Part shown: positions 19,269 through 50,185 of the stretch, in pieces
Layout of the letters: the number at the start of each line of letters is the position of its first letter
Numbering within the stretch: the first letter of the stretch is position 1
From: Burkholderiales bacterium
Lineage (GTDB): Bacteria; Pseudomonadota; Gammaproteobacteria; Burkholderiales; SG8-39
Length of the DNA: 64,000 nt
Reading direction: 5' to 3'
Assembly: GCA_049651845.1 (NCBI GenBank)
Contig: JBASCW010000037.1
Location: 501-64,500, forward strand
Program-made: the position numbers and the translations under genes
The notes under the pieces: generated by a model
Told to the model about the DNA's origin: nothing
What the model saw: only the letters and a program-made list of their open reading frames with translations
Database searches by the model: none

Positions 19269-19279
19269 GGAGAGCCGAC

Positions 19280-20766: not shown

Positions 20767-22175
20767 TGACGGGGCAGAGCGACGCGCGCGCCCAGTCGCT
20801 GGACGCTCTGGTGGACGCGCCGCTCGTGCGCCTCTGGCTGCTGTGGGGAATGTTCTGGCTCATGCTGACGCCCACCGTCGGCGCCACGATTTCCTCGCTG
20901 TTCAATTTTCCGGACTATCTCGGAACCTCGCTGATGCTCGGCTTCGGGCGGCTGCGTCCGATCCACGTCAACGGCGTCATCTTCGGCGCGTTCTCGACGC
21001 TCTTCATCGGCCTGTGCTACTACCTGCTGCCGCGCCTGTGCGGCGTGCGCGTCGTCTGGGAGCGGCTCGGCTACGTTCTCGTGTGGGCGTGGAACCTCGG
21101 GCTGGCCGCCGGACTGGCGTCGCTCGTGTTCGGCATGAACCGCGGCCTTGAGGCCGGCGAGCTGCCCGCGTTCGCGTCGACGGTTCTCTTCGCCGCCATC
21201 GTGACGCTGACGGTCCAGTTCACCGCTACGGTGGCGCGGCGGCGCGACGAGCAGCTCTACGTCAGCCTGTGGTATCTCGTCGCTGCCTTCGTCTGGACGT
21301 CGCTCAACATGGTGCTCGGCGTCTTCATCCTGCCGAACGCCATCACCGGCATCAACAGCGCCGCCTTTCATGGCCTGTACATCCACTACATCGTCGGCCT
21401 CTGGATCACGCCCGCGGGCTACGTGCTGATCTACTACTTCCTGCCCGCGGCGGTGCGCAATCCGATCTACAGCCACAAGCTCTCGCTCATCGGCTTCTGG
21501 TCGCTGGCGCTGTTCTATCCGTTCGTCGGCATCCACCACTACCTTTACAGCCCGATCGCGGATTGGGCCGAGACGCTGGCCATCATCACCTCGATGCTGT
21601 TGATCGTGCCGGTCTGGACGGTGCTGCAGAACTTCTTCGGCACCATGATCGGCCGCTGGCAGTCCTTCGGGCGCAATCTGCCGGCGAAGTTCCTGATCAT
21701 GGGCTCGCTCATGTATCTCATCGGCTGCTTCCAGGGCTCGGTCGAGGCGTTGCGCTCGATCCAGCAGCCGACCCACTTCACCGACTTCGTGATCTCGCAC
21801 TCCCATCTCACGGTATTCGGCACCTTCGTGGTCTGGGCCGTCGGCGGCCTCGTCTACGTCTGGCCGAAGATTCACGGCCAGGAGCTCTACTCGTTCAAGC
21901 TGGGCAACTGGTCGTTCTGGCTCATCACCCTCGGCATCTCGACGATGGGAATCGTGCTCTCGGCGCAGGGGCTGCAGCAGGGCTTTATGTGGATGGCCGG
22001 CGTGGAGTGGCTCGATTCGATCAATGCGATTCGCGCCTTCTGGGTGGTGCGCACGCTCGCCGGCCTGTCGATGGATCTTGGCATGACCTTGCTCGTGTAC
22101 AACCTGTTGCGCACGGCGATGAAGTCATCGCCGGCCGCGTTCCCCGCGGGCGCCGCGCAAGGAGCCGCGCCGTGA
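20766..22175 (+). CDS. ccoN: C-family (cbb3-type) haem-copper oxidase catalytic subunit, divergent CcoN
   Basis: 469 aa, about 12 TM. Co-linear with CcoN: RLRPIHVNGVIF (haem b His), GLYIHYIVGLW (CuB His), LFYPFVGIHHYLY (Tyr plus HH with cbb3 spacing) and ISHSHLTVFG (haem b3/b His pair). Confidence 0.85.
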   Translation: MTGQSDARAQSLDALVDAPLVRLWLLWGMFWLMLTPTVGATISSLFNFPDYLGTSLMLGFGRLRPIHVNGVIFGAFSTLFIGLCYYLLPRLCGVRVVWERLGYVLVWAWNLGLAAGLASLVFGMNRGLEAGELPAFASTVLFAAIVTLTVQFTATVARRRDEQLYVSLWYLVAAFVWTSLNMVLGVFILPNAITGINSAAFHGLYIHYIVGLWITPAGYVLIYYFLPAAVRNPIYSHKLSLIGFWSLALFYPFVGIHHYLYSPIADWAETLAIITSMLLIVPVWTVLQNFFGTMIGRWQSFGRNLPAKFLIMGSLMYLIGCFQGSVEALRSIQQPTHFTDFVISHSHLTVFGTFVVWAVGGLVYVWPKIHGQELYSFKLGNWSFWLITLGISTMGIVLSAQGLQQGFMWMAGVEWLDSINAIRAFWVVRTLAGLSMDLGMTLLVYNLLRTAMKSSPAAFPAGAAQGAAP

Positions 22176-24390: not shown

Positions 24391-25086
24391 ATGCCGGCAC
24401 TCGGCTACGCGCTGACTTTTGTCGCCGGCGTGGCGGGCAGCCTCCACTGCATCGGCATGTGCGGTGGTTTTACCTGCGCGTTGCGCGGCGCGTCGCGCGA
24501 CAGCGCCGCCTGGCTGCCGCGGCAGCTTCTCTACAACTGCGGGCGCGTCACGACCTATGCGTTTCTCGGCGCGCTCGCCGGCGCGCTCGGCCGGAGCCTG
24601 CATGGCCGGCTCGACCTGGCGCAGCGCTCGCTCTCCGTGCTCGCCGGTCTGCTCATGGTGGTGATGGCGCTGCAGCTTTCCGGTTTTCTTGGCCGGCGGC
24701 ACGGTACCGGCGGTTTCGCTACCCTGAATTTCACAGCCGCACTGGGCGGCCTGGTGCGAACGCCGCATGCGGCGGGGCCGCTCGCGCTGGGTGTGGCCAA
24801 CGGTTTCCTGCCCTGTCCCCTGGTCTACGCCTTCGCGCTGCAGGCGGCCGCGGCGGGCGGCCCGGTGCCGGGCGCCTTGATCATGGCGGCGTTCGGGCTC
24901 GGCACCTTTCCCGCCATGTTTCTGATGGCGGGCCTCGGCGGATGGATCGGCGCCGTCTGGCGCCGTCGCGGGGTGCGCCTCGCTGCCGTGTTCATCCTGC
25001 TGCTCGGGATTGGAACGACCGTGCGCGGACTGCTGCCGGCCGAGGCGTTGCACGGCCCGTCTGGCGCCCATTCGCATCCCATGTGA
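24391..25086 (+). CDS. DsbD_2/TauE-like membrane protein with HCxGMCGG motif
   Basis: 231 aa, about 6 TM, with SLHCIGMCGGF in the first helix. This type is commonly found beside CcoI-class ATPases. Confidence 0.55.
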   Translation: MPALGYALTFVAGVAGSLHCIGMCGGFTCALRGASRDSAAWLPRQLLYNCGRVTTYAFLGALAGALGRSLHGRLDLAQRSLSVLAGLLMVVMALQLSGFLGRRHGTGGFATLNFTAALGGLVRTPHAAGPLALGVANGFLPCPLVYAFALQAAAAGGPVPGALIMAAFGLGTFPAMFLMAGLGGWIGAVWRRRGVRLAAVFILLLGIGTTVRGLLPAEALHGPSGAHSHPM

Positions 25087-25087
25087 C

Positions 25088-27178
25088 ATGGAAACCGCCC
25101 GCAATTCCTTCTGTGCGCACTGCGCGCTGCCGATCGGCCGCCGGCCCGATCTGCGCCAGGTGAGCGGCGAGGCGCGCGTCTTCTGCTGTTATGGCTGCGC
25201 GATCGCCTTTCAGGTACGCCACGGCAACCACGAGGAGGCGGACGCCGCTTCGTTCCTGGTGCGCCTCGGCACCGGCGCCTTTCTCGCCATGAACGTCATG
25301 ATGTTGAGCTGGTTGTTCTACGGCGACTTCCCGGACCTTGACGGGGCGCTGCCGCGCGCCGGGATCCTGTGGGTGGTATGGCTGCTCGCAACTCCCGCGG
25401 TGGCGATCCTGGGGTGGCCGTTCGCGAGCGAGGCATGGCAAGAGGCGAAAAACGCCCGCGTCGGCGCGTCGGGGCTCGCCGTTTTCGGTGTCGCCTGCGC
25501 TTATCTTTACTCGACCTTCGTTCTCTTGCGCGGCGGCGAGGAGGTGTACTTCGACACGGCGACCATGGTGCTGGTCCTCTTTACTCTCGGCCGCTACCTG
25601 GAGGCCGCGGGGCGCGCCCGCGCGGCGCGCGATCTTGCGCCGATGCTCGAGGCGGAATCGCGAACGGCACGTGTCGGCGATGTCATCCGCGTCGCGCCTG
25701 GAGAGCGTATCGCGGTCGACGGTGTCATCGTCGAGGGACGCGCATTCGTGGACGAGGCGGTCATCTCGGGTGAGAGCCGGCGGCTTGAAAAGTCCGCGGG
25801 CGCAAGCGTGACCGCCGGCAGTTTGAATCTGGACGGCCATTTGCTGGTGCGCTGCGAAGCGGCCGGCGGCGACACGCGCTGGGGACAGATCTGCCTCGCG
25901 GTGCGCTCGGCGCTCAGCGCGCGCTCGCCGCTGCAGGGCGTTGCAGATCGTATTTCCGCGGCCGCTGTGCCGCTCGTGCTCGCGGTTGCGGCTGTGGTCG
26001 TCGCGGCCGGCGTATCTTCGCTTGGGTTCGACGAGGCCATGTTGCGCGGCGTTGCGGTACTCGTTGTCGCCTGTCCCTGCGCGCTCGGCCTGGCGGCGCC
26101 GCTCGCGGCAGCGCTTGGCGTGGCGAGACTGACGCGGCAGGGATGCATCGTGCGCAGCGGCGGCGTGCTCGAGTCCCTCGCCCGCGCGCACACCATCCTT
26201 TTCGACAAGACGGGAACCTTGACCTCGGGCACGCCGCGTCTGGTTGCGATCCAAACGAACGGCGTCGCGGCAGATTTGCTGCTGCGGCGCGCGGCGGGAC
26301 TCGAGCAGGGTTCCGGGCACGCCCTCGGACGAGGGATCGCATCAGCCGCCGCGGCGAGAGGGCTTCTGCCGCTCGCCGCACGCGACGCGCGCAGCATACC
26401 CGGCTGCGGCGTCGTTGCGACGGCCGAGGACGGCTCGACCGCCGCAGGGAGCGCGAAATGGCTGGCCGAGCTTGGCTTTCAGCCGGCCGGAGGCGGCATC
26501 GCAGAAGCGGCCGCGAGCCATGCGGCAAGCGGTTTCGCGCTGGTCCATGTCGGCTGGGCGGGCGCGGAGCGCGGCCTGATCGCGTTCGAGCATGAGCTGC
26601 GGCCCGAGGCCGAGGCGACCCTCGCAGCGCTCAGGCAGCAGGGCATTCGCTCGTTCGTCGTCAGCGGCGACCTGGCCGAAGCGACGCGGCGCACTGCCGA
26701 TGCCGCGGGCGCCGACGACTGGGTGTCCCAGGTCCCGCCCGAAGCGAAGGCCGAGCTGGTCGCGCTGTTGCGGCGCGAGCGCGGCGTCGTCGCCATGGTC
26801 GGTGACGGCATCAACGACGCAATGGCGCTTGCCGAAGCCGATGTCGGCATTTCCATCGCAAGCGCGACCGACCTCGCCCGGGAGACCGCCGACCTGGTGC
26901 TGCCGCGCAACAGCTTGGCGCTGCTGCCCTGGGCCGTCAGAATGGCAGGCGCGGTGCGGCGCACCATCGTCTCGAATCTCGTCTGGGCGTTCGGCTACAA
27001 CGCGGTCGCCGTCGCGCTTGCGGCGAGCGGTTTGCTGCAACCGATAGGAGCCGCTGCGCTGATGGCGGGCTCGAGCCTTCTGGTGATCGTGAATTCCCTG
27101 CGCCTGGAGCGTTTCCCGGCGCCCGAGGAAAAGGAAGCGGCCGTTGAAAGCGGATTGCCGGATGTTGCCCATGTTTAG
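25088..27178 (+). CDS. ccoI: Copper-translocating P1B-type ATPase, CcoI/FixI-like
   Basis: N-terminal Cys-rich region (CAHC, CCYGC), CPC motif (VVACPCALGLA), the phosphorylation site DKTGTLT and the hinge VGDGINDA. Confidence 0.85.
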   Translation: METARNSFCAHCALPIGRRPDLRQVSGEARVFCCYGCAIAFQVRHGNHEEADAASFLVRLGTGAFLAMNVMMLSWLFYGDFPDLDGALPRAGILWVVWLLATPAVAILGWPFASEAWQEAKNARVGASGLAVFGVACAYLYSTFVLLRGGEEVYFDTATMVLVLFTLGRYLEAAGRARAARDLAPMLEAESRTARVGDVIRVAPGERIAVDGVIVEGRAFVDEAVISGESRRLEKSAGASVTAGSLNLDGHLLVRCEAAGGDTRWGQICLAVRSALSARSPLQGVADRISAAAVPLVLAVAAVVVAAGVSSLGFDEAMLRGVAVLVVACPCALGLAAPLAAALGVARLTRQGCIVRSGGVLESLARAHTILFDKTGTLTSGTPRLVAIQTNGVAADLLLRRAAGLEQGSGHALGRGIASAAAARGLLPLAARDARSIPGCGVVATAEDGSTAAGSAKWLAELGFQPAGGGIAEAAASHAASGFALVHVGWAGAERGLIAFEHELRPEAEATLAALRQQGIRSFVVSGDLAEATRRTADAAGADDWVSQVPPEAKAELVALLRRERGVVAMVGDGINDAMALAEADVGISIASATDLARETADLVLPRNSLALLPWAVRMAGAVRRTIVSNLVWAFGYNAVAVALAASGLLQPIGAAALMAGSSLLVIVNSLRLERFPAPEEKEAAVESGLPDVAHV

Positions 27179-28058
27179 AGCGTATTTCCTTGCGTTGGCC
27201 GCGACCCTCGTGGTTGCCCCGGCATGGTCCGCAACGGAGCCTGCGGCGGTGGTTCTGGAGTACGCGCGCGCCCTGTATGCGCGGGACTTCGAGCGGGCTT
27301 ACCGGCTCGTTTCGCCGCGCGACAAGGCGGTCAAGCCGCGCCCGGTCTATCTTCAGGAGAACCGCGCGCTCGAGGGCGAAGCGCTGGAGTTTTCGCGGCT
27401 GCTGGCGTCGATGGTCGCGGTCAGCAGGATCAGGACGAACCGCACGGGCGATCGGGCGACGGTGACCTTCCGGGCGCTGCTGCCGGACGCAAACGCGGAT
27501 CGCGTGCGCGAGATGACCAAAGGTTTCGACGCGGCCGCCTTGAACAAGCTCAGCGCCTCGGAGCGCGAGGCGCGCATGCGCGAGCTCAAGCGCCTTTCCG
27601 GCATGCGACGGCTCCCCACCATCGAGAGCGCCAACGAGGAGTGGCATCTCGTCCGGGTGGACGGCCGGTGGTGGCTCGATCTCGACTGGGGTGGCGCGGT
27701 CCGCGTGCGCTTCGGCGCCGCGACGTTCGCCGGGCTGGGATGGGAATTCGCGCCGTTGCAGGAAGAGGTGCGAGCCCGTCCCGGCGAAACCCTTCAGGTC
27801 GTCTACCGGATCAGGAACGCCACGGCCGGCACGGTAACGGCGAAGGCACGCCATGTCGTTACGCCCGGCGCCGGCGCCAAGCACCTCGACATCGTGACCT
27901 GTTTCTGCTTTCTGGAGCAGACGCTCGGACCGGGACAAGTAGTCGAGCTGCCCGTGGTCTTTCGCGTGAGCTACGACGCGCCGGAGAACATCGGCCCGAT
28001 CGAAGTCCGCTACGAGCTCTATCCGGCGGAGGCGTTTCCAAAGGACGCGGCCTCATGA
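27162..28058 (+). CDS. Secreted two-domain protein with C-terminal Cox11/CtaG-like copper-chaperone domain
   Basis: Signal peptide MLPMFRAYFLALAATLVVAPAWSA. The C-terminal ~110 aa carry PGETLQVVYRIRNAT, DIVTCFCFLEQTLGPGQ and PVVFRV, including the CFCF copper motif at 27900-27911. The N-terminal domain is unassigned. Confidence 0.55.
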   Translation: MLPMFRAYFLALAATLVVAPAWSATEPAAVVLEYARALYARDFERAYRLVSPRDKAVKPRPVYLQENRALEGEALEFSRLLASMVAVSRIRTNRTGDRATVTFRALLPDANADRVREMTKGFDAAALNKLSASEREARMRELKRLSGMRRLPTIESANEEWHLVRVDGRWWLDLDWGGAVRVRFGAATFAGLGWEFAPLQEEVRARPGETLQVVYRIRNATAGTVTAKARHVVTPGAGAKHLDIVTCFCFLEQTLGPGQVVELPVVFRVSYDAPENIGPIEVRYELYPAEAFPKDAAS

Positions 28059-31583: not shown

Positions 31584-32312
31584 TCAATAGCGCGTCGTCA
31601 GGTCGTTGAGCCAATCCGGATAGAGTCCGACGGCCCAGGCCTCGAAGGACTTGTCGAATCCGCTCAGGATCGCGATCCCCAGCAGCACGAAAATGATGCC
31701 GAGCACGGACTTCCCGAGCTTGCCCGCCGAGAGCATGCGGCCGCGCATCCGGACCATGCTGGCGCGCGAAATCGAGCCGAGCGCGACCAGCGGGGTGCTC
31801 GCGCCCAGGCCGAAGATCACCATGAGGAGGGAAATCTGCGCCAGGTTCTGGCCCTGCGACGCCAGCGTTGTCGCGGCCCCGAGCGTGGGGCCGACGCAGG
31901 GCGACCAGACCACGCCAAGCACCATCCCGATGACGAACTGACCCGTCAGGCCGTTCAGGTTCAGCCGGGAGATGACGCTGTCGCCCGCGGCGCTCAGTCC
32001 GGATGCGGCCGTCGCAATGCGCTGCTGAAGCCCGGTCGACAGCAGAAGGATTCCGAACGCGATGAGGATGACGGCCGCGATATTGCGCAACAGCGCCCGA
32101 TCCAGGCCGAGCGAGGCGCCGAGCACGGCAACGAAAACGCCGACCGAAGCAAACGCGACCGTAAGGCCAAGCGCGAGTGCGTAGGGTCCGAGCCGGTGCG
32201 CCGCCAGCGCGGTGGCGACGACGATAGGCACGAGGGGAAGCACGCAAGGCGAGAGCGTCGTCAGTATCCCGGCGGCGTAGCCCAGTCCGTAAGTGCCCGG
32301 CCCGAACTCCAT
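31584..32312 (-). CDS. ccdA: CcdA/DsbD-beta family membrane protein (second copy)
   Basis: 242 aa with LSPCVLPLVP and WSPCVGPTLG. Paralog of 7132-7866. Confidence 0.85.
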   Translation of the reverse strand: MEFGPGTYGLGYAAGILTTLSPCVLPLVPIVVATALAAHRLGPYALALGLTVAFASVGVFVAVLGASLGLDRALLRNIAAVILIAFGILLLSTGLQQRIATAASGLSAAGDSVISRLNLNGLTGQFVIGMVLGVVWSPCVGPTLGAATTLASQGQNLAQISLLMVIFGLGASTPLVALGSISRASMVRMRGRMLSAGKLGKSVLGIIFVLLGIAILSGFDKSFEAWAVGLYPDWLNDLTTRY

Positions 32313-32336
32313 CGGCGTGCTTCTCCCAGCCGTTTC

Positions 32337-32720
32337 TCAGAGCGCCTTGGCGAAGACCGCCGCGAGGTCGGCTTTCCGGGTCTGCCCGGTCGAGCGCGCG
32401 ACCTCCTTGCCTCCCTTGAATACGACAAACGTGCTTTGCTGGGATACGCGGAGCGCCTTCTTCAGTTCTTTTTCCTTGTCGAAGTCGGCCACGAACAGCG
32501 TGACATCCTTCATCTTCGCGTCGCGCATCAGCTCCAGCACGATCGGCTTCTGCGTCTTGCAGGTCGGGCACCAGTCGGCGTAGAAGTCGACGATCACCGG
32601 CCGGCCTTCGGCGATAGCCCTGTCGAACGCCGCCTTGTCGTAGGGCTGCTCGCCTGCCGCGGCGCCGATGGAAAAAAGCAATGCGAGAGTCGCGCATGCG
32701 CGCTTGAGCCAGATTTTCAT
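32337..32720 (-). CDS. Secreted thioredoxin-family protein (WCPTC), second copy
   Basis: 127 aa with a signal peptide and YADWCPTCK. Clear paralog of 7876-8256. ATGA overlap with the upstream gene. Confidence 0.85.
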   Translation of the reverse strand: MKIWLKRACATLALLFSIGAAAGEQPYDKAAFDRAIAEGRPVIVDFYADWCPTCKTQKPIVLELMRDAKMKDVTLFVADFDKEKELKKALRVSQQSTFVVFKGGKEVARSTGQTRKADLAAVFAKAL

Positions 32721-33439
32721 TTTGCTTGCTCCTGTAAGGTCTTGCTGTTCAGAAGATGGTCCGCCAGCTCCGCGAATCCATCCACCACGAGGGTGCAGGC
32801 CGGATTTGCGTTCGGGTCGGGCGGACCGCCGGGGCCCCATTCCTCGGGACGGCGCACGAACGCGGTCTGGAATCCGCAGGCGCGTGCGGCGTCGAGGTCG
32901 AAGTTGTGGCAGGCGACCATGAGGATTTCGGCGGGCTCGAGCTGCAGCCATTTCGCAGCCGTGCGATACGCCTCCGGCCGCGTCTTGTAGATGCCGATCA
33001 TTTCGCAGGAGATGATGGCGTCCCAGTCGATGCCGTTTTTCTTCGATACGTCGATCACCAGCGACGTGGTGAGCAGCGTAAAGGAGGCGACCACGTAGCG
33101 CTTGCGCAGGCGCGCCGCCGCCGCCGGAAAATCAGGCCAGGCGTCGAGCGCATGCCAAGTGCGCCAGATCGCGTCGCGATCGGCTGCGGTCAGCGCATCC
33201 AGCTTGAACTCGGCGATGACTTCGTCGAGTTTTGCGCGGTGCACGTCGTCGAAGTTGTAGGAAGGATGCTCGGCGTTGACGATGCCCTTGAGCGAGCGCC
33301 GCCGGTATTCGTTGGTGATCGCCGCCCAGTCTGCCTTCAGGCCGCGCGCGGCGCCGGCCTTGGCGAACGCGCCGCTGATGCCTCGGTGCCAGTCGAGAAT
33401 CGTGCCGCCCGTATCGAAGGCGAGGGCCTTGAGCGTCAC
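32717..33439 (-). CDS. HAD-superfamily hydrolase, haloacid dehalogenase type II-like
   Basis: GTG start overlapping the upstream stop. AFDTGGTILDW nucleophile motif, SFTLLTTS, and MVACHNFDLDAARACG. Confidence 0.7.
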   Translation of the reverse strand: MTLKALAFDTGGTILDWHRGISGAFAKAGAARGLKADWAAITNEYRRRSLKGIVNAEHPSYNFDDVHRAKLDEVIAEFKLDALTAADRDAIWRTWHALDAWPDFPAAAARLRKRYVVASFTLLTTSLVIDVSKKNGIDWDAIISCEMIGIYKTRPEAYRTAAKWLQLEPAEILMVACHNFDLDAARACGFQTAFVRRPEEWGPGGPPDPNANPACTLVVDGFAELADHLLNSKTLQEQAK

Positions 33440-33963
33440 GCTTCGCCGCGCGCGGGGTAGTTCTTGCTCAGCGCAAAGTCGATCGCGCCCAGGATGTCCT
33501 TGAAGTGCGGGCGGGCGAAGGGCATGGTGGAGACCGAGGCCCAGTACAGGGTGGCGTCGGGCTTGACGAGAAAGATGCCCGGCTCGGCGAACAGCGCCGG
33601 CTCCTCGATGCCCGCCGAGGTCATCCCCCGGCCCGTCGATACATAGAGTCCCCACTCGCGCGCCTTGTCGATGCCCACGCCATAGCCGACGGCGAGGCCC
33701 GGCAGGCCCCATTTCGCCTTCGCTTCGGCTGCGCGCTCCTGCGAGTCGGTGCTGGTGATGACGGTGGAAACGCCGCGCTTGTCGTAGTCGGCGATCATGC
33801 CGTTCAGTTCGGAGGTGTAGCGGTGGCAGATCGGGCAGTGCAGGCCGCGGTAGAACACGATCATGGTGAAGTTCTGCGGCTTCTGCGCGGCGAGCGACCA
33901 GCGGCCGCCGCCGACGAGGTCGAACTCGAGCGCGGGGGCGGGTTTGCGGGGCAGCAATGCCAT
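33436..33963 (-). CDS. Peroxiredoxin/redoxin-like thioredoxin-fold protein (CPIC)
   Basis: RBS GAGGAG 6 nt before the ATG at 33963. FYRGLHCPICHRY motif and no signal peptide. Confidence 0.6.
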   Translation of the reverse strand: MALLPRKPAPALEFDLVGGGRWSLAAQKPQNFTMIVFYRGLHCPICHRYTSELNGMIADYDKRGVSTVITSTDSQERAAEAKAKWGLPGLAVGYGVGIDKAREWGLYVSTGRGMTSAGIEEPALFAEPGIFLVKPDATLYWASVSTMPFARPHFKDILGAIDFALSKNYPARGEA

Positions 33964-34205
33964 GAGAATCTCCTCGGAAGCCATAACTTTACTTGGTTGG
34001 GCTCGAGCCGCGCGCAGAACGTGCGCCACGCCGTAGCGCGGCCCCTCGGTGATCGGGCGCCGGTAGCGGTAATGTAGCGGGCGGACGCGCCCGGGCGCGT
34101 ACTGAGCGGTCATCGAGTAAAGTCGGGACTGTGGCGACAACCTTACATCGGCGCAGGCTGCCGGGCGCCGCAGGCGCCGCGCCGGCAAGTCGCCGCAAGC
34201 GAGGG

Positions 34206-34937: not shown

Positions 34938-35966
34938 CTATCCGCGCCAGGGCGCGGTGATTGCGCGCCGGATCGCGGCCTCGGGCGCGGCGTCGTCCAG
35001 ACTCACCCCGCTGCCATCGGCGCGCACGCCGAGCCTGCGCCAGAGCGCTTCCAGATCGACCGGCGCGGGCGCGTCCTTCATCTCGGCGTAGAACTCGGCA
35101 AGCACCGGGACGCCGGTCGCGCGGTCGCCGATCGCAAGCAGCGGCGCCAGGGCGGAAGAGGATTCCATGCTTCCGGCGTCGAGGATCGCGCGCAACGCGT
35201 GCTGCAGACCGAATCGGTTCCCGGTACGGCGGCGGATTTCCAGGTCGGCCAGCAGGCAGTAGAGCGCGCCCCCCCAGTACGTCCGTCCCCAGGTCGGGGT
35301 GTTGTCCAGGCCCCGGTCGCCGGGCTGCGGCAGGCCCTGCGGCAGGCCCGCGACCAGGTCGGCCCAGACCTTCTGGGCGGAAAGCTGGCCCGCCTGCGCG
35401 CGCGCGATCGCTTCCACATACGAGGCGAGGCCTTCTTCGATCCAGTGATGCCGGTCCGGGACCGAGGGGAAAGCGAGGTGTACCATCTCGTGCACCAGCA
35501 CCCAGTCGCGCGCTAGATCGGCGCCGTTCGAGCGCTCGCCGAGCCCGACGCGCACCGCCGCGCCGCGATGCGCCCAGGCGCGGCCCGGGCCCACGCCGCG
35601 CCCTACTCTGGGAACGACGAGGATCCGCGCGCTGGCGACCGGGAAGCGGCCGTAGTAGGCGGCCACGGCACGCGCCGAAGTATGAATCCAATCGCGAACC
35701 TGACCCTGAGACAGATCGAGCGCCCCAGGCGCAAACGCGACGGCGAGGATCGACCCGGAAACCTCCAACCGCGTTGCGGGGAGCCGGTCGAAGGCGTCGT
35801 AGGGCATCCGCGAGCCGAGAAAAATCGCATTTGATTCAATCGCATCGGTGGGCCAGGCCACTGCCGGTGGGGTGGCGAAGACCAACGCGGCCAGCAGGCG
35901 CGCAGTCCCAGTTGTAAGAAACGACCTTACGCCCCCGACCTTGCCTTGCCTGTACGCCGTGCGCAT
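34938..35966 (-). CDS. Secreted HExxH zinc metallopeptidase-like protein
   Basis: Signal-like N-terminus (ARLLAALVFATPPAVAWP), HEMVH plus a downstream EEGLASY. Family not resolved. Confidence 0.55.
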   Translation of the reverse strand: MRTAYRQGKVGGVRSFLTTGTARLLAALVFATPPAVAWPTDAIESNAIFLGSRMPYDAFDRLPATRLEVSGSILAVAFAPGALDLSQGQVRDWIHTSARAVAAYYGRFPVASARILVVPRVGRGVGPGRAWAHRGAAVRVGLGERSNGADLARDWVLVHEMVHLAFPSVPDRHHWIEEGLASYVEAIARAQAGQLSAQKVWADLVAGLPQGLPQPGDRGLDNTPTWGRTYWGGALYCLLADLEIRRRTGNRFGLQHALRAILDAGSMESSSALAPLLAIGDRATGVPVLAEFYAEMKDAPAPVDLEALWRRLGVRADGSGVSLDDAAPEAAIRRAITAPWRG

Positions 35967-36016
35967 GTGCGCGGTCGCCGGGTGCGTATTTGCGGGGCCC
36001 GGCTTGCCGGGTGTTT

Positions 36017-36028
36017 TGGGATATCCCA
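36017..36028. promoter_or_regulatory. Perfect 12-bp palindrome upstream of the RiPP precursor gene (candidate operator)
   Basis: TGGGATATCCCA ends 21 nt before the bufA ATG, in the 83-nt divergent intergenic region. Confidence 0.25.
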
Positions 36029-36049
36029 CCATCGATAAGGAGAGTCTAA

Positions 36050-36301
36050 ATGAGAGTCAATAAGCTTACCGGCATCGCCCTCGCCACCGCCGCCGCGGGC
36101 ATCTTCGCGATGACCGCCGCGGTCCCGACGGCTGCGCAGGCGGCCAAAGTGAAATGCGAAGGCGTCAACGCCTGCAAGGGGCAGGGCGACTGCAAGGGCG
36201 CGAAGAACGCCTGCAAGGGCCTCGCCGAATGCAAGGGCCTGGGCTTCAAGGAAATGACCAAGGACGAATGCGACAAGGCGAAGATGGCGATGAAGAAATA
36301 G
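36050..36301 (+). CDS. bufA: Secreted Cys-rich RiPP precursor, bufferin-like (6-Cys type)
   Basis: RBS AAGGAG. Sec signal peptide ending AAQA. The core is [51 protein letters not shown] with Cys at residues 36, 42, 48, 55, 61 and 74. It sits directly upstream of the DUF692 and DUF2063 genes. Confidence 0.7.
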
Positions 36302-36365
36302 GGCCGGATTCTCGCTGCCGACCCAGGGGCCGCCGGCGGACCGCGCCGGCGGCCCATTCCCGTCC

Positions 36366-37196
36366 ATGACCGCACTCACCGGGTTCGGCCTGGGATTGCG
36401 TCCCAGGCATTACCAGGCCATCCTCAAGTCCAGGCCGCGCGTGGACTGGTTCGAGGCGCTGTCCGAGAATTACATGATTCCGGGCGGGCGGCCGCTGCAC
36501 TACCTCGAGCGCATTCGCGAGCGCTATCCCGTGGTGCTGCATGGCGTGTCGCTATCGATTGGCAGCACCGATCCGCTCGACCGCGCCTACCTGAAGCAGT
36601 TGAAGGCACTCGCCGCGCGCGTCGAGCCGGTGTGGATCTCGGACCATCTGTGCTGGACCGGCGTGGCGGGCCGCAACCTGCACGACCTGATGCCCCTGCC
36701 GTATACCGAGGCGGCGCTGCGGCACGTCGCCCGGCGCGTGCGCGACGTCCAGGACTTCCTCGGGCGGCGCATCCTGCTGGAGAACGTGTCCAGCTACGTG
36801 AGCTACCGTTCTTCCGCGATGACCGAGTCGGAATTCCTCGCGGCGCTCGCGCGCGAGGCCGACTGTGACCTGCTGCTCGACGTGAACAACATCTACGTGA
36901 GCGCGTTCAACCACGATTTCGACCCGGTCGGGTTTCTCGACGGCATCCCGCCGGCGCGCGTGCGGCAGATCCACCTCGCCGGACACGACCACTGCGGCGA
37001 CCTGATCATCGATACGCACGACGCGCCGGTGATCGGAGCGGTGTGGGATCTCTACGCCGAAGCGGTGCGACGTTTCGGCGCGGTGCCGACGATGATCGAG
37101 CGCGACGACCGCATTCCGCCGCTCGGCACGCTGCTGCGCGAGCTGGACCGCGCCCGCGCGATCGCCGCCGGAGTCATGCAGAAGAAGGCCGCGTGA
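36366..37196 (+). CDS. bufB: DUF692 / MNIO-family (MbnB-like) iron oxidase
   Basis: 276 aa with [56 protein letters not shown] and IHLAGH. These are the typical DUF692 TIM-barrel signatures. Confidence 0.85.
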
Positions 37197-37984
37197 GCGA
37201 GCTCGCGTCGCTGCAGCGCGCGTTCCAGCGCCACGTCTATCGACCCGGGCGCGCCATGGAGGCCGCGGTGCTCGCGACCGCACGCGCGGGCGCTGCCCGG
37301 CGACTGGGCGTCTACGCCGATGCTTACCGCCTGCGCCTGGTGGAAGCGCTCGCCAACGACCATCCCGCGTTGCAGGGATTACTGGGAGAAGCGGGCTTTG
37401 ACCGCATGATGCGCGCATACATCGCCGCGCGACCGTCACGCCACGCCAATCTGCGCTGGTACGGAGGCGGGCTGGCGCGCTACCTCTCGCGTTCGCGGCA
37501 GTGGCGCCGCCGGCCGCAGCTCGCCGAGCTGGCGCGCTTCGAATGGGCACTGGGGCTGGCGTTCGACGCGGGCGATGCGCCCGTGACGACGGCCGAGGAG
37601 TTGGCGCGCATTGCGCCAGAGAAATGGCCGGGAATGCAGCTGCGCCTGAATCCTTCGGTGCAACTGGTCGATCTGCGCAGCAACGCGCCGCAAACCTGGC
37701 GCGCGGCCACGACCGGCCGCAGACCGCCGGCCGCGCGGCTGGCGCCGCGGCCCACGCGCTGGCTGGTCTGGCGCAAGCAATTCGAGCCTTTTTACCGAGC
37801 GTTGCCCGCGGATGAGTCCTGGGCGCTGGCGGCGGCGGCGCGCGGGCACGATTTCGCCGCGCTGAGCGCAGGCCTGCGCCGGTATTCGGGCGCCGCGAAC
37901 GCAGCGCAGACCGCCGCACAGATGCTGCGCAATTGGCTGAGCGAAGGCCTGATCTGCGGCGTCGACTACGCCGACAAGGTGTAG
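37193..37984 (+). CDS. bufC: DUF2063-domain partner protein of the MNIO enzyme
   Basis: GTG start overlapping the bufB stop. It carries [26 protein letters not shown] and [11 protein letters not shown], typical of DUF2063. Confidence 0.75.
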
Positions 37985-39285
37985 ATCTCGGTCGGCGCCG
38001 TGCGCCCGCGCACGGTGACCGAATCCATGCGCCGGAACGCGAAGCCGTTGCCGGCGGCGCGCACCGTGCTTTCGGTGGCGAGGATGTAGGTGCCGTATTT
38101 CTTGTTGAGCTGCTCTAGGCGCGCGGCGATGTTCACTTCGTCGCCGTGTACCGTGTACAGCAGCCGGTTGTACGCGCCGACCGCGCCGGTGACGATGCGG
38201 CCGGTATTGATGCCGCAGCGCGTGCGCATGCGCACCTTGCCGCCGAACAGATGCTCGCGGGTCGCCTGCCGGATGGCGAGCGCGCAGCGCACCGCGTGCG
38301 CGGCGTGGTCGGGATCGGGCTTGACGGCGTTGAACGTGACCAGCATCGCGTCGCCCTGGAACTGCGTGATCGCGCCACCCTGGCTCTCGACCGCCGCGGA
38401 CACGGCTTCGAAGTACTCGTTCAGCAGGGACACCAGGCGCTCGGGCGCAACCTTCTCGGAGATGGTCGAGAAGCCCTCGATGTCGGTGAACAGCACGCTC
38501 GCCTCGCGCACTTCGCCATCACCGGGCTTCAGGCCGTGGTCGGAGGCGGAGATGCGGTCGGCGACCTCCGGTGCGACGAAGCGCGACAGGTCCTTCGCCA
38601 GCACGCTGTCCAGCACCGCGCGATAGAGAACGCGGCGCGCGCGCACCAGGCCCAGCGCCAGCACCGCGGTGACGGTCAGGATCGAGATCACCTTGTCGAT
38701 CTCGGCGCCGACCAGCACGCTGTTGGAGGTCATGTAGTGGACGTAGTCGCGGGTCACGGTCATGTCCCCCGACGTCGCGGCGTAGCCGAGCAGCAGCAGC
38801 CAGCCCGCGGCGGCGGCGATTCCGGCAATGGCGACGTAGAGCGGCTCGAAGCGCAGGGCCCGCAGGGCAATGAACAGGAACACGTATAGCAGCGTCGGCG
38901 CTTTCAGGTAGAACGGCGCCGGTTGCTCGTACTGCAGGTGAAAGCTCCAGATCAGGCCCATCAGCAGGGCCATGTCGATGCAGATGCCGAGCACGACCAG
39001 CGGCGGGCTGAGCCACTGGCGATGCGCCGCTGCGAGCCGCAGCAGCGCAAAACCGAGGAACGCCGCCAGCACCCAGGGCACGGGCAGGAAGCGCGTGCCC
39101 GCGGAAGTCTTTGCCGACAGCGTGTAGAGCACGAGGAAGAACAGCACCAGCGCAAGTTGCACCCAGCCGATCAGGATCTCGCTGTGGACCTGCTGTTCTA
39201 CGATCAGCCAGCGGACGCGTTCGGGCGGGGTGCCCTTCGGCCCCTCGCCCAGGACAAACTCGGAGAAACGCCGCCACATTTGCAA
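37966..39285 (-). CDS. Class III adenylate/guanylate cyclase with multi-TM N-terminal domain (intact copy)
   Basis: 439 aa, about 6 TM, then VLFTDIEGFS, FQGDAMLVTF, GINTGRIVTGAVG and YTVHGDEVNIAARLE. Its 3' end overlaps bufC by 19 nt (convergent). Confidence 0.85.
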   Translation of the reverse strand: MQMWRRFSEFVLGEGPKGTPPERVRWLIVEQQVHSEILIGWVQLALVLFFLVLYTLSAKTSAGTRFLPVPWVLAAFLGFALLRLAAAHRQWLSPPLVVLGICIDMALLMGLIWSFHLQYEQPAPFYLKAPTLLYVFLFIALRALRFEPLYVAIAGIAAAAGWLLLLGYAATSGDMTVTRDYVHYMTSNSVLVGAEIDKVISILTVTAVLALGLVRARRVLYRAVLDSVLAKDLSRFVAPEVADRISASDHGLKPGDGEVREASVLFTDIEGFSTISEKVAPERLVSLLNEYFEAVSAAVESQGGAITQFQGDAMLVTFNAVKPDPDHAAHAVRCALAIRQATREHLFGGKVRMRTRCGINTGRIVTGAVGAYNRLLYTVHGDEVNIAARLEQLNKKYGTYILATESTVRAAGNGFAFRRMDSVTVRGRTAPTEIYTLSA

Positions 39286-39322: not shown

Positions 39323-40675
39323 CTACTTCACCAGCCGCGTCGACGGGTAGGCGGCGAACCAGCCGAACCAGAACGCGCGGTGCGCAGGCAGGCGTCTGAG
39401 GCGCGCGCCCCCGGGTCCGGTCAGTTCGTCCTCGGTCAGCTTCCAGGCGCCGCCGGCGCTGTCGCGCACCGTGGCTTCTCCGTCCCAGCTCGCGAATCGG
39501 TGCTGGGCGCTCTGGTAAGCGCGGTTGGCGCCGGAAGCGTCGGTCAGGACGACGAAGGCCTGCCCGCCGATGCGGTCGTGATGGACGCGGTTCGCCGCGA
39601 GGAAATCCGCCGCGATGGCGAGCTGCTCGCCTCGCTTGCCGGGTGAGCGCAGCGCCAGCACTTCGGCCTTGTTGGGCAGGCGCGGGTCGAGCTTCGGCAC
39701 GCCGAACATGAGTTGATCCGTGGCGAAGTAATCGCGGTAGGCCGCGCCCTCGCTGTAATCGCGCTGGTGCCCGGTATCCAGCGAAAGCACCGTGGTCTCC
39801 GGATGGCGCTTGCGCCACGCGCCCCAGGTGGTCGTCACGACGCGCAGGGTCTCCAGCTCGATCCCCTTGCCGACCAGCGGCCCGACCACCGGCTCGCCGC
39901 CGAGCGTGGACCAGAGGGACTTGGTGGCGTGGTCGTACATCAGCTTGTTGGAGCGGTACAGGAATCCGCTGGTGCCGAGCTCGTGATGGACGCCGTTCAC
40001 GGTGACGTCATATAGGATCATCGAGCCGCACAGCGTGCAGTAGACGCCGTTCAGCTCGCGGCCGCCGATGCGGTCCTTGACCATTTCGTGCCAGGCGAGG
40101 ATGCGCTTGGGGTAGGCGCGCACGTCGCCGCCGATGGCGACACCGAACACGACATCGCCGTCGGCGAGATAGGTCGCCTGCGCGGCGCGGATCATCCTCG
40201 GGTCCTTCAGCGGTGGGATGCCGTCGCGCAACACGCCGCCCCAGCGGATCTCGTCCAGGCGGATGGTCGTCTTGCGGTCCTTGGCGAAATACTCGCGAAA
40301 GCGCGGGTCCACTTGCTCGTAGAGTCCGGCCTTGAACTCCGCATAGCCGGGAAACCCGCCCGCATCGCGCGCCCAGATCCACTCGTAATGTGCGTTCAGG
40401 TCGTCGCGGGGCCGTCCGGTGACGCGCGCCACCTGCGCGAGCGCTTCGGTCTGGACCAGCAGGGACGGCGCGAATACGGCCGCTTCGAGCAGCGGCGCAG
40501 CGTAAGCGTCGCGCCAGCTGCCTCGAATCGTTGCCAGCGCCGTACGCGCTGCATCGGTGTTGCTGTTTAGCACCCCCAGAAACGTTTGCACCGTAACCGG
40601 CGACGGTGCCTGCGCGTTGGCCACCGATGCCGCAACGCAAAGAAGCAGAGTGCCCAGCGTGGTGCGCGATCTCAT
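39323..40675 (-). CDS. Secreted DUF3179-domain protein with ~170-aa N-terminal extension
   Basis: Signal peptide MRSRTTLGTLLLCVAASVANA. The DUF3179 core has DGIPPLKDP, AYPKRILAWHEMVKD, VYCTLCGSMILY and GFLYRSNKLMYDHATKSLWS. Confidence 0.75.
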   Translation of the reverse strand: MRSRTTLGTLLLCVAASVANAQAPSPVTVQTFLGVLNSNTDAARTALATIRGSWRDAYAAPLLEAAVFAPSLLVQTEALAQVARVTGRPRDDLNAHYEWIWARDAGGFPGYAEFKAGLYEQVDPRFREYFAKDRKTTIRLDEIRWGGVLRDGIPPLKDPRMIRAAQATYLADGDVVFGVAIGGDVRAYPKRILAWHEMVKDRIGGRELNGVYCTLCGSMILYDVTVNGVHHELGTSGFLYRSNKLMYDHATKSLWSTLGGEPVVGPLVGKGIELETLRVVTTTWGAWRKRHPETTVLSLDTGHQRDYSEGAAYRDYFATDQLMFGVPKLDPRLPNKAEVLALRSPGKRGEQLAIAADFLAANRVHHDRIGGQAFVVLTDASGANRAYQSAQHRFASWDGEATVRDSAGGAWKLTEDELTGPGGARLRRLPAHRAFWFGWFAAYPSTRLVK

Positions 40676-40746: not shown

Positions 40747-42801
40747 ATGCGCATGCTGTCGAACCGCAACCGGCCGGTGCATCTTGGACCGTTCCCGATG
40801 GAGCGCGTGGCGCGCGCAACGGCCGCGCCGGATCTCGCTGGCGTGGCCGACCGCTTCCCGGTGCGCAGCGAAACGCCGCTCGGCCGAATCGTCAACGACT
40901 ACATCGCGTTGTTCGAGCGGTACCGCACGGAGGCGCCGGCGCCCGGGCGGGCGCCCTATCCGCCGGACCCGCAGCGGCTCGCCAATGAGCTGAAGGCGAA
41001 CTGCTACTTCCTGAATGCCTCGCTCGCCGGCTGCTGCGCCATTCCGGACTCGGCCTGGACCGGGCCGCGCAGCGAAGACCATCGCCATGCGCTGGTTATC
41101 GCGGTCGAGTTCGGCCGCGATCCCGAGCCCGACAACCCGGCCGCCGGCTGGGTGCGCGGCAGCGAGTACGACTGCGCGCTGCTGCGCGCCGCGGAAATCG
41201 CGTTGATCTCGGCTGCCTTTCTGCGGCGCCTCGGCTTTTCGGCGACGGCTCACACGCGTGACTGCACCGAGGTCTCGCATGCGCAACTGCTGGTCGCGGC
41301 CGGCCTGGCGCGATGGCAGGACGGCGGGGTGGCCGCGCCCTTCATCGGCGCGCGCTTCGCCTCCTGCGTCGTCACCACCGCAGAGCCGCTCGCGGCGGAC
41401 AGCCCTCTTGGGGCAGCAGCGAGCGTTCTCGATGGGGGCCTGGGCTGGTGGATCGGCGCGGGCGGCGCCGAGACCTGGTGGGAGCGCGCGCTGGCCGCGC
41501 GACGGCCCGCCGACGGCAGCCGGTTCCCGATGGAAAAGATCCGGCGCGTCGAACAGCCCACCACGCTGATCCTGGAGGACGAGGTGCCGCGCGTGCCCAA
41601 GCGCGCGAACTTCTTCACGCGTGCCCTGCACGGCGACCTGGGTGACAAGGCGCAGCGCGAGCGCTGGCGCTTTGCCTACAAGACGCCGATTGCCGATGCG
41701 TACGTGAAGCTGATTCGGGCAATGATTCCGCTGCAGAATGGCATTGCCTTTCCGCACAAGGCGAAGAATACCGACGATCCGGTGGCAAACGCGCTCGGCA
41801 TCAAGTCACTCATGTACTACCTTGGCGCCGACATGGCAGGCGCCTGCGAGGCGAAGCGCTACGCCTGGTACTCGCACCAGGAGGACGGCGCGCCGATCGA
41901 CGCCTACCATCGCAGCGCGATGGTGATGCTCGTGGACCAGGGCTTCGAAACCATGGAGGGCGCCTCGGGCGACGACTGGATCTCGGGCGCGCAGTCGATG
42001 CGCGCCTATATGCGCGGCGGCGAGATCTGCGGCATCGTCGCCGCCTTCATCCGCAGTCTGGGCTGGAGCGCGCGCTCGCAGACCAATGCCGATTCCGACG
42101 TGCTGCAGTTGCCGCTGGTCCTGCTCGCGGGCCTGGGCGAGCTGTCGCGCATCGGCGAGCTTGTGCTCAATCCCTTCGTGGGGCCGCGTTTCAAGAGCGC
42201 CGTGGTGACCACCGACATGCCGCTGCAATGGGACCGGCCGATCGATTTCGGCCTGCAGGACACCTGCAGCCGGTGCATGAAATGCGCGCGCGAATGCCCC
42301 TGCAGCGCGATCCCGTTCGGCGACAAGGTGATGTTCAACGGCTATGAGATGTGGAAGCCGGACGTCGAGCGCTGCACGCGCTATCGCGTCACCAACCCGC
42401 ACGGCTCGGCCTGCGGGCGCTGCATGAAGACCTGTCCCTACAACCACGAAGGATTGCTCGCGCACCGCTTGCTGCTCTGGGCGGCCATCCGCCTGCCCTG
42501 GACGCGCTCCTGGATCGTGCGGCTGGACGACGCGGTCGGCAACGGCTCGATCAATGCGGTGAAGACCTGGTGGACCGACCTGGAGATCGTCGATGGCAAG
42601 GTGGTGCCGCCCAAGGCAACGAACCGGCGCAACTTGTCCGTCGGCAAGGCTGCCAAGGCGCATGAAATCGCTTACTATCCCGCCGCCGCAATGCCGCCGC
42701 CGGATGCGAAAGCACCGGTCCCCGTGGACCGCAAGGCGGCACTTGCCATGAACCCCGAGTCGCCCGCCGCGGCGCGGAACCGAAACAGGAGCAGAACATG
42801 A
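40747..42801 (+). CDS. Reductive-dehalogenase-like protein with duplicated core domain and 2x[4Fe-4S] C-terminus
   Basis: 684 aa. Two internally similar segments: (CYFLNASLAGCCAIP...FLRRLGFSATAHT...PFIGARFASCVVTT) and (MYYLGADMAGACEAK...FIRSLGWSARSQT...PFVGPRFKSAVVTT). These are followed by CSRCMKCARECP and CGRCMKTCP. This matches my recollection of NpRdhA-type catabolic dehalogenases. Confidence 0.55.
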   Translation: MRMLSNRNRPVHLGPFPMERVARATAAPDLAGVADRFPVRSETPLGRIVNDYIALFERYRTEAPAPGRAPYPPDPQRLANELKANCYFLNASLAGCCAIPDSAWTGPRSEDHRHALVIAVEFGRDPEPDNPAAGWVRGSEYDCALLRAAEIALISAAFLRRLGFSATAHTRDCTEVSHAQLLVAAGLARWQDGGVAAPFIGARFASCVVTTAEPLAADSPLGAAASVLDGGLGWWIGAGGAETWWERALAARRPADGSRFPMEKIRRVEQPTTLILEDEVPRVPKRANFFTRALHGDLGDKAQRERWRFAYKTPIADAYVKLIRAMIPLQNGIAFPHKAKNTDDPVANALGIKSLMYYLGADMAGACEAKRYAWYSHQEDGAPIDAYHRSAMVMLVDQGFETMEGASGDDWISGAQSMRAYMRGGEICGIVAAFIRSLGWSARSQTNADSDVLQLPLVLLAGLGELSRIGELVLNPFVGPRFKSAVVTTDMPLQWDRPIDFGLQDTCSRCMKCARECPCSAIPFGDKVMFNGYEMWKPDVERCTRYRVTNPHGSACGRCMKTCPYNHEGLLAHRLLLWAAIRLPWTRSWIVRLDDAVGNGSINAVKTWWTDLEIVDGKVVPPKATNRRNLSVGKAAKAHEIAYYPAAAMPPPDAKAPVPVDRKAALAMNPESPAAARNRNRSRT

Positions 42802-49674: not shown

Positions 49675-49741
49675 GGCGTCATTCTAGGGCTTCCCCGACC
49701 CCCGCTTGACAGCCCGGGGGCGCTGGACAATACTAAACCTT

Positions 49742-50185
49742 ATGGTTAAGTATGAAGAACCCGTCCTCGACCGCGTGTTCTCGGCGCTCGCCGACCCGAC
49801 GCGCCGCGGCGTGCTCGAGGCGCTCGCGGGCGGCAGCTGCGCGGTGAGCGAGCTCGCCGCGCCCTCGGGCATGTCGCTGCCGGGCTTCATGAAGCACCTG
49901 CGCGTGCTCGAGGAGGCGGGCCTGATCGCGCGCGAGAAAGAGGGCCGCGTGGTGAGCTGCGAGCTCTTTGCCGCGCCGATGAAGGCCGCCTCCGAGTGGA
50001 TGTCGCGCTACGAGAAATTCTGGAGCGACAAGCTCGACTCGCTCGCCCGCTACCTGTACCAGCAAGAGGAGCTGCAGACATGGAACAAGCCAGCGTTCAA
50101 ACCAAGCCCTCGCTCGTCCTCCACCGCAGGTTCGCCGTCGCGCCGGAGAAGGTCTGGCGGGCGTGGACCGACCCGCAGGCGATAG
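49742..50185 (+). CDS. ArsR/SmtB-family transcriptional regulator
   Basis: FSALADPTRRGVLEALAGGSCAVSELAAPSGMSLPGFMKHLRVLEEAGLI winged helix. The ORF runs 106 nt into the next gene, so its last ~35 codons (Ser/Arg-rich) may not be native. Confidence 0.75.
   Translation: MVKYEEPVLDRVFSALADPTRRGVLEALAGGSCAVSELAAPSGMSLPGFMKHLRVLEEAGLIAREKEGRVVSCELFAAPMKAASEWMSRYEKFWSDKLDSLARYLYQQEELQTWNKPAFKPSPRSSSTAGSPSRRRRSGGRGPTRRR

Follow-up and report, generated by a model that had tools for sequence, protein, structure and literature searches.

A probable three-gene Buf2-type bufferin operon of a Burkholderiales bacterium, with a recurrent peptidase-like neighbour

The described system that most resembles the locus analysed here is Buf2 of Caulobacter vibrioides (CCNA_03001-02999, bufA2-bufB2-bufC2, BUF_6/12Cys), a bufferin operon that encodes a precursor peptide, a multinuclear non-haem iron oxidase (MNIO) and a DUF2063 partner. 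In the C. vibrioides peptide, the first and the sixth Cys (CysI and CysVI) remain unmodified and are probably disulfide-bonded, and the central Cys lose 4.03 Da each (PMC11626156). Its partner, BufC, was described as an N-terminal DUF2063 domain followed by a C-terminal domain resembling the recognition element (RRE) of peptides that are ribosomally synthesised and then modified post-translationally (RiPPs) (PMC11626156). The arrangement of a six-Cys precursor, a DUF692 protein and a DUF2063 protein had been noticed in 2021 in Antarctic soil metagenomes (PMC8692599), BufA2 genes have been reported both within operons and standing alone (PMC12452194), and a 2026 study assigned BufA2 to the 'Cys-Lys' group of the 'captophorins' (PMC13097082). 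Thousands of Buf2 clusters are now catalogued, and MNIO-PME1 clusters are found in about half of the Pseudomonadota reference genomes. Here, we analysed a stretch of 64,000 nt of DNA from a Burkholderiales bacterium (the window), in which bufA2, bufB and bufC follow each other in this order on the + strand (36050-37984). We consider it highly probable that this locus is a three-gene Buf2-type bufferin operon (a 'Cys-Lys' captophorin cluster), working by a mechanism analogous to that of its characterised relatives. As such, it is a typical Buf2 cluster of an already described family and not a new system.

A first-pass annotation, made from the sequence alone, had interpreted the triad of precursor, MNIO and DUF2063 genes as a bufferin locus, and the profile searches (NF050166, NF050167 and PF09836) concur. 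All the features it described are present where it had placed them, apart from a detail of the Cys spacing. What was computed here comprises the identities and families of the genes, the conservation of catalytic and Cys residues, the layout of the operon, and the recurrence of a promoter motif and of a stable spacer; the gene caller of the database record gives identical calls for the three genes. The expectation that all three would be listed as hypothetical is outdated, as NCBI now uses the names 'BufA2 family...' and 'HvfC/BufC N-terminal domain-containing protein' for close relatives, the former for a 78%-identical protein of a Burkholderiales metagenome-assembled genome (MAG).

The precursor gene bufA2 (36050-36301, + strand) encodes 83 aa. 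In this window of 67% GC, genuine genes are marked by a GC content at third codon positions above 0.8, and bufA2 (0.87) is on par with them. The strong ribosome-binding site seen at first pass is a Shine-Dalgarno sequence, AAGGAG (36037-36042, + strand), 7 nt 5' of the ATG, whose GGAG is invariant in seven aligned upstream regions. The protein scores 79.6 bits (cut-off 60, residues 9-78) against the NCBIfam model NF050166 (Cu_RiPP_BufA2 equivalog, 'BufA2 family periplasmic bufferin-type metallophore'), and it is this model, rather than an alignment with the BufA2 of C. vibrioides, that places it in Buf2. No Pfam family matches BufA2 at E values up to 0.01, hence neither does DUF2282 (PF10048), in agreement with the earlier view that the precursor is not of the DUF2282 type but of the six-Cys class. 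A minority of its relatives have a precomputed PF10048 match, which would fit a distant relationship to Buf1. The reading frame is not a chance occurrence, because the protein collection contains 349 homologues and the best 120 have exactly six Cys, each of them invariant.

By inspection, BufA2 starts with a putative Sec signal peptide (36050-36142), composed of a basic n-region (MRVNK), a hydrophobic h-region and a c-region that closes with A-Q-A (residues 29-31). Its relatives share this pattern, which corresponds to the cleavage after AAQA that had been proposed. The predicted core (36143-36298) has 52 aa, including 13 Lys and 7 Gly, and an unmodified monoisotopic mass of 5480.65 Da. Its six Cys (36, 42, 48, 55, 61 and 74) occur in the contexts KCEG, ACKG, DCKG, ACKG, ECKG and ECDK and are spaced by 6, 6, 7, 6 and 13 residues, so that the interval of 6-7 residues given at first pass is right for the first five and wrong for the sixth. 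The central C42, C48, C55 and C61 are in C-K-G, whereas C36 is in C-E-G and C74 in C-D-K. This division matches the modification pattern of Buf2 (PMC11626156). The EGKCG (Lys-Cys) repeat is absent from BufA2, where Lys follows, and does not precede, the four central Cys.

The second gene, bufB (36366-37196, + strand), begins after a spacer of 64 nt and encodes an MNIO of 276 aa. The assignment to DUF692 made at first pass is borne out by scores of 383.7 bits for PF05114 (MbnB_TglH_ChrH) and 391.7 bits for NF050167 ('MNIO family bufferin maturase', cut-off 310). The models of other MNIOs score below their cut-offs: HvfB (284.1 for a cut-off of 360), ApyH (88.7 for 400), MbnB (TIGR04159, 62.7 for 325) and ChrH (41.9 for 600). 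BufB aligns to PDB 3BWW, TglH and MbnB, and its residues H59, H94, E139, D172, N175, D216, H218, E245 and D247 are invariant in 79-82 relatives and align with conserved His, Glu, Asp and Asn positions of these three proteins. We take them to be the iron ligands known from the published structures of MbnB and, in D247, the catalytic base. The protein reads E245-R246-D247-D248, and an Asp occupies the position of D248 in 57 of 79 relatives. In MNIOs of the Cys-Lys group, the catalytic Asp is reported to be typically followed by Asp and not by Phe, and this residue was modelled against the Lys of the substrate (PMC13097082).

The third gene, bufC (37193-37984, + strand, 263 aa), has a GTG start within a 4-nt overlap (GTGA) with bufB, to which it is translationally coupled. 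The DUF2063 domain and the overlap were both anticipated by the first-pass annotation: PF09836 (DUF2063/HvfC_N) scores 77.6 bits (vs 27.2) over residues 7-98 and is found in every one of 247 homologues. Searches of the PDB by sequence, with the single protein or with a profile, gave no true match, and it was the fold comparison that retrieved relatives. The AlphaFold model (mean predicted local distance difference test, pLDDT, of 86.7) has strands at 148-203 and 254-259 and helices at 206-250, and its top Foldseek matches are 3DEE/NGO1945 (E 4e-6) and TglI (8HI7_A, E 1e-5), followed by weaker ones to the RREs of lasso-peptide B1 proteins (6JX3_B and 5V1V_A, TM-target 0.63-0.74, E 0.4-0.65). 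NGO1945 is the structural exemplar of the DUF2063 partner family. The model supports the view of BufC as a PME1-type partner, with an N-terminal DUF2063 domain and a C-terminal RRE-like (winged-helix) domain. The sole NCBIfam match is to the HvfC equivalog NF050145, at 38.3 bits for a cut-off of 142. Since this is far below the cut-off, BufC was filed as PME1/BufC-type; such a score would fit a protein that is not HvfC.

A scan of one genome per species yielded at least 406 loci that encode a relative of BufA2, mostly in MAGs of Burkholderiales, Steroidobacteraceae and other Pseudomonadota. Among the best 80 of these loci, about 60 have the same bufA2-bufB-bufC order, about 15 have a stand-alone precursor, and only 11 have a DoxX gene within 6 kb. 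The first-pass annotation was also right that the operon has no DoxX gene: tblastn with a DoxX seed gave a best E value of 0.34 in the window, and the precomputed Pfam table has no DoxX within 10 kb on either side. In this it does not depart from the family: bufD is likewise missing from the founding C. vibrioides buf2 operon, and DoxX is dispensable for Buf1 (PMC11626156). Clustering of the neighbouring genes, done on crude open reading frames, was noisy (with spurious antisense frames) and revealed lineage-specific synteny only, e.g., cystathionine genes in Steroidobacteraceae.

The locus shares with C. vibrioides Buf2 the three-gene order without bufD/DoxX, the Sec signal peptide, the six conserved Cys, the MNIO and the DUF2063-RRE partner, the pairing of a Cys-Lys motif with an Asp after the catalytic Asp, and a putative ECF-type (extracytoplasmic function) promoter resembling GTAACC-N16-CGAA. 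It differs in the length of the core (52 aa vs 61), in the promoter elements (GTAAGA/CGAC vs GTAACC/CGAA), in the lack of a sigF-nrsF pair nearby, in the presence of a divergent M61-like peptidase gene upstream, and in its host, which judging from the nearest relatives is a Burkholderiales-like betaproteobacterial MAG. The Buf1/gig operons (Caulobacter bufA1BCD; gigPABT of Cupriavidus and Legionella) use the same MNIO subfamily and type of partner, make copper chelators of the periplasm that contain thiooxazoles and an outer disulfide, and are under ECF control, but their DUF2282 precursors have four Cys instead of six, and the locus studied here has no DUF2282 match, no DoxX and no adjacent sigma/anti-sigma pair. 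The EGKCG captophorins (oxazolin, made by HvfABC of Haemophilus influenzae, fontiphorin, gonophorin and bulbicupramide) are also MNIO-PME1 systems with a signal-peptide precursor, 5-thiooxazole products and a link to copper. They are set apart by their largely unstructured peptides with Lys-Cys repeats, by an enzyme with Phe in the place of Asp248, and by HvfB and HvfC models that the proteins of this locus do not reach. Methanobactin (MbnABC) is more distant: it has in common the MNIO fold, the iron ligands and a copper-binding heterocycle derived from Cys, but its precursor is short, leader-dependent and devoid of signal peptide, its product is an oxazolone-thioamide, its partner MbnC is not a DUF2063 protein, it has dedicated export and uptake genes, and its MbnB model is far from being reached by BufB.

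When the sequences upstream of bufA2 in the closest loci were aligned, they turned out to share a block that resembles an ECF-sigma promoter, GTAAGAAA-N14-CGACC, located in the window at 35914-35940 (+ strand), 110-136 nt 5' of the bufA2 ATG. The exact GTAAGAAA occurs once in the window, and the block aligns in four related loci (L003, L007, L012 and L013). More broadly, GTAA-N2-N15-17-CGA[AC] is present in the 250 nt 5' of bufA2 in 18 of 79 loci (23%), whereas random windows drawn from these loci contain it in about 1% of cases. All these copies end in CGAC, most lie 113-184 nt from the ATG, and the loci that carry them include some with quite different upstream genes. In our locus, the motif runs into what is likely the 5' coding end of the divergent gene, where its reverse complement encodes part of a signal peptide. 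A promoter scan found no sigma-70-like promoter 5' of bufA2. The gene was not filed in the sigma-F regulon of Caulobacter, in which a GTAACC-N16-CGAA site drives buf1 and buf2 (PMC3511200), as that site was not found 5' of bufA2 with up to two mismatches; what is present there, and in the 18 loci, is the related GTAAGA-N16-CGAC type of motif. The expression of bufA2 would probably depend on an ECF sigma factor acting at the GTAAGAAA-N14-CGACC site, with a transcription start predicted near 35947.

The motif is over-represented in the window, where GTAAG-N16-18-CGA[AC] has six matches for 1.32 expected, a number reached in none of 100 shuffles, and three of the five other copies face plausible partner genes from upstream. 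One (53519-53543, - strand) is 5' of an msrB gene with a signal peptide (52939-53487), another (34122-34146, - strand) is 5' of an operon for a peroxiredoxin-like protein, a HAD hydrolase, a thioredoxin and CcdA (31584-33963), and a third (13770-13795, + strand) is a GTAAGG-N16-CGAA site 188-213 nt 5' of the start of an ECF sigma gene (ECF2, 13983-14573). A further copy (40502-40527, + strand) may precede a reductive-dehalogenase-like gene. Of the two ECF sigma factors encoded in the window (9053-9607 and 13983-14573), ECF2 is the better candidate for the cognate one, and bufA2, msrB, the thiol-redox operon and the ECF sigma gene probably form one ECF envelope-stress regulon.

A published survey found sigma/anti-sigma genes in Buf1 clusters and not in Buf2 clusters. 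Among the close relatives, a tandem pair of ECF sigma genes together with one anti-sigma gene is directly 5' of bufA2 in L003 (2013-3771), and lies further upstream in L012 (910-2667), with a homologue of the divergent gene between it and bufA2. The anti-sigma proteins begin with MNCLDFRR or MKCLDYRR. Both ECF sigma factors of the window are only 27-34% identical to those flanking buf2 in L003, L012 and L013, and their genes are accompanied by other types of anti-sigma factor (not NrsF), relatives of which were not found in these three loci. The window also has a 97-aa frame matching NrsF (11323-11616, + strand; positions 69-157 of the 204 of the Pfam model), flanked by stops in all frames and without an adjacent sigF, which looks like what is left of a gene from the sigF-nrsF pair, the regulators of bufferins in Caulobacter.

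Two RNA structures accompany bufA2. In the spacer between bufA2 and bufB, there is a perfect 12-bp GC-rich hairpin without a U tract (36327-36355, + strand), and a 75-nt stretch covering the 64-nt spacer folds with -40.4 kcal/mol (z = -2.5). The spacers of 48 of 63 related loci (76%) have z < -2 in spite of unrelated sequences, and many of the folds inspected show a long GC-rich hairpin, in some cases with T runs behind it. The hairpin, on which the main text of PMC12452194 is silent, is probably a partial terminator or attenuator, or else protects the 3' end of the mRNA, and would in this way keep the precursor above the enzymes. The second structure is a small stem-loop followed by a T run (35992-36017, + strand) in the predicted 5' leader of bufA2. 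It is the sole terminator-like match of the scan and, taken alone, is within chance expectation. At this position, an inverted repeat of the CCCGG/CCGGG type with Ts behind it occurs in related loci as well, and L007 has CCCAG/CTGGG instead, apparently a compensatory change.

From C. vibrioides Buf2 and from MNIO-PME1 systems reconstituted in vitro, we infer by analogy the chemistry, export, disulfide, copper binding and regulation of this system. An ECF sigma factor would drive the operon, and the hairpin after bufA2 would keep the precursor in excess. BufA2 would be synthesised with its Sec signal peptide and bound in the cytoplasm by the RRE-like domain of BufC, which would hand it to BufB. 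With O2, BufB would carry out the four-electron oxidation of C42, C48, C55 and C61 to 5-thiooxazoles, with Asp248, next to the catalytic base Asp247, reading the substrate Lys after each of these Cys. The modified peptide would then be exported and cut after A-Q-A, the outer C36 and C74 would form a disulfide, and the periplasmic product of 52 aa, expected to be about 18 Da lighter than the unmodified core, would sequester excess copper.

Several points weigh against this interpretation. The thiooxazoles invoked by the first-pass annotation were demonstrated by nuclear magnetic resonance (NMR) for Buf1 and the EGKCG peptides, but for Buf2 what is published is a mass loss and the absorbance at 305 nm of one member, without NMR (PMC12452194). 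BufC passes no curated equivalog, including HvfC, the sole one of the partner family. The motif 5' of bufA2 differs from the sigma-F consensus of Caulobacter at 3 of 10 specified positions, and the window has the NrsF fragment in place of a sigF-nrsF pair. In four loci the motif overlaps the coding sequence of the divergent gene, and its conservation there may be in part that of a protein. Finally, the source is a metagenome-assembled contig, and the locus and its close relatives are known as sequences only.

The same biosynthesis could serve a main role other than copper, such as defence against oxidants (hypochlorite, reactive sulfur) or the handling of further thiophilic metals (Au, Cd, Cr), and would then belong to an ECF stress regulon. 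The motif shared with the periplasmic msrB and the peroxiredoxin-like/thioredoxin/CcdA operon would suit this role, as would one related locus (L085) where msrB and msrA come directly after the genes for the precursor, the MNIO, the DUF2063 protein, the peptidase and DoxX. Furthermore, chromium and cadmium elicit a response of sigma-F in Caulobacter (PMC3511200), hypochlorite does so in related sigF systems (PMC4436054), and MNIO-PME1 clusters have been tied to oxidative and metal stress (PMC13097082). However, Cu induces bufA2 of Caulobacter whereas Fe, Zn and Mn do not, buf2 by itself sustains growth in copper (PMC11626156), and genes for a copper-type ATPase and Cox11 are close to our locus, all of which makes a mainly non-copper role unlikely, although the two roles do not exclude each other. 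It is far less probable still that the peptide is exported largely unmodified, as a plain metal-binding protein rich in Cys and Lys or a disulfide-rich one, with BufB and BufC being inactive or having another substrate. In its favour, roughly 15 of 80 BufA2 loci are stand-alone, without an adjacent MNIO (also noted in PMC12452194), but here bufB and bufC are intact, coupled, directly downstream and in possession of all catalytic residues, and the C-K-G context of the central Cys matches Asp248 of BufB.

The product might instead carry methanobactin-like oxazolone-thioamides. These are isobaric with 5-thiooxazoles and hard to distinguish from them, to the point that oxazolin was first assigned in this way, and Buf2 peptides have no NMR structure. 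Yet, every MNIO-PME1 product tested by alkylation-assisted heteronuclear multiple-bond correlation or selective labelling proved to be a 5-thiooxazole, the re-assigned oxazolin included (PMC13097082; bioRxiv 10.64898/2025.12.15.693703); with BufB also being so far from MbnB, we give this chemistry as little credence as the absence of modification. Least credible is an affiliation to the oxazolin/fontiphorin family (EGKCG, HvfABC), which is suggested by HvfB being the second-best NCBIfam match of BufB and HvfC the sole one of BufC. Model scores and motif already contradict it: both matches are below cut-off, the precursor lacks the EGKCG repeat and has its Lys on the other side of Cys, BufB has Asp where that family has Phe after the catalytic Asp, and FonBC does not process the NACKG motif.

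The Buf2-type operon has a neighbour of its own interest, a gene on the - strand (34938-35966) that diverges from bufA2 and encodes a predicted exported protein with an HExxH motif. The start of the gene is uncertain: an ATG at 35966 yields a signal peptide, and the gene caller of the database record starts at 35885. The protein has no sequence match in Pfam, NCBIfam or the PDB. It carries HEMVH...WIEEG. Without exception, the HExxH is conserved, together with the Glu downstream of it and a TWGRTYWGG block, in its relatives, which form a family of 2,778 representative clusters at 50% identity and bear signal peptides or membrane anchors. Its model (pLDDT 93.3) has M61 and M1 zinc aminopeptidases as top Foldseek matches (E 7e-9), and sub-threshold matches to Peptidase_M61 were found in 14 of 32 relatives; the predicted fold is that of M1/M61 zinc peptidases. 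The many relatives of 450-500 aa have an N-terminal extension, which is not DoxX. A fusion of DoxX and peptidase (P0355) was considered and rejected, because the two parts seem to be joined across a frameshift and a separate Met is present in the DoxX portion; the adjacency of the two stands.

Relatives of this gene recur next to bufferin genes in several configurations. The gene is divergent from bufA2 in the window and in five related loci (L007, L012, L013, L083 and L089). It overlaps bufC by 4 nt in L028 (7928-8977), a position it also takes in L032, and in L085 it is found between the DUF2063 gene and DoxX (5001-6005), with msrB and msrA behind. In the commonest arrangement, it closes bufA-bufB-bufC-DoxX-peptidase clusters, in which the precursors are likewise C-K-G peptides. 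The loci that have it within buf operons or appended to them include L119, L125, L130, L153, L164 and L167. We also sampled 80 metagenome loci chosen solely for encoding a relative of the HExxH protein, of which 62 were informative. Genes of the MNIO-DUF2063(-DoxX) type were present in 21 of these 62, and in 12 of the 26 whose upstream sequence extends for at least 3 kb; three other sampled members had no MNIO nearby. One published account regards additional conserved genes as rare, and the bufferin and MNIO literature that we searched, supplementary tables aside, does not mention this one. We propose tentatively, with somewhat less than even confidence, that the HExxH protein is an undescribed accessory component of Cys-Lys (Buf2-like) clusters, e.g., a periplasmic peptidase that trims the N-terminal spacer after cleavage of the signal peptide or that otherwise processes or turns over the metallophore.

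On the other side of the operon, the last 19 nt of a convergent gene for a membrane adenylate/guanylate cyclase (37966-39285, - strand, 439 aa, PF00211 at 90.5 bits) overlap the end of bufC, and the terminator scan found no terminator-like site between the two, both as described at first pass. The cyclase was rejected as a component of the system, since it is not beside buf2 in any related locus; a homologue occurs in L004 only, some 3.6 kb beyond bufC. A DUF3179 gene (PF11376, 39323-40591, - strand) adjoins the cyclase, and a frame just 5' of ECF2 (12723-13682, + strand) is DUF3179-like by eye. A 684-aa protein (40747-42801, + strand) with a 4Fe-4S dicluster region scores 178.7 (cut-off 160.35) in the reductive dehalogenase subfamily TIGR02486, and its gene is followed by one for a TctC-family receptor.

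The window as a whole encodes a copper-type P1B ATPase, CtaG/Cox11, DsbC, DsbD/CcdA-like proteins, thioredoxins, a peroxiredoxin-like protein and MsrB, so the setting of copper and thiol homeostasis genes claimed for the operon is real. At 24391-28058 (+ strand), genes for a DsbD_2 membrane protein, the copper-type P1B ATPase (TIGR01511, 402.6 for a cut-off of 397) and a 304-aa CtaG/Cox11 are consecutive, an order that suggests a role in supplying an oxidase with copper and not mere efflux. Another region (16045-22175, + strand) encodes an arsenite-oxidase-like pair, made of a Rieske subunit and a large subunit of 879 aa (Rieske_3/molybdopterin), with a dihaem cytochrome c and subunit I of a haem-copper oxidase downstream. 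An ArsR-type regulator is encoded at 49706-50185.

As a bufferin, the locus adds little to what is known of the family, but its 83-aa precursor with four C-K-G sites provides a compact example for the unsolved chemistry of Buf2. The conserved hairpin after the precursor gene would set the stoichiometry of precursor to enzymes, and the conserved ECF-type promoter may unite the bufferin, a thiol-redox operon and a periplasmic MsrB in a single envelope-stress regulon. If the association with the HExxH protein is true, a step of proteolytic maturation would join a class of RiPPs that was thought to need only an MNIO, its partner and Sec. If this peptidase acts on the peptide, it would answer the question raised in the literature of whether mature products undergo further processing after export.

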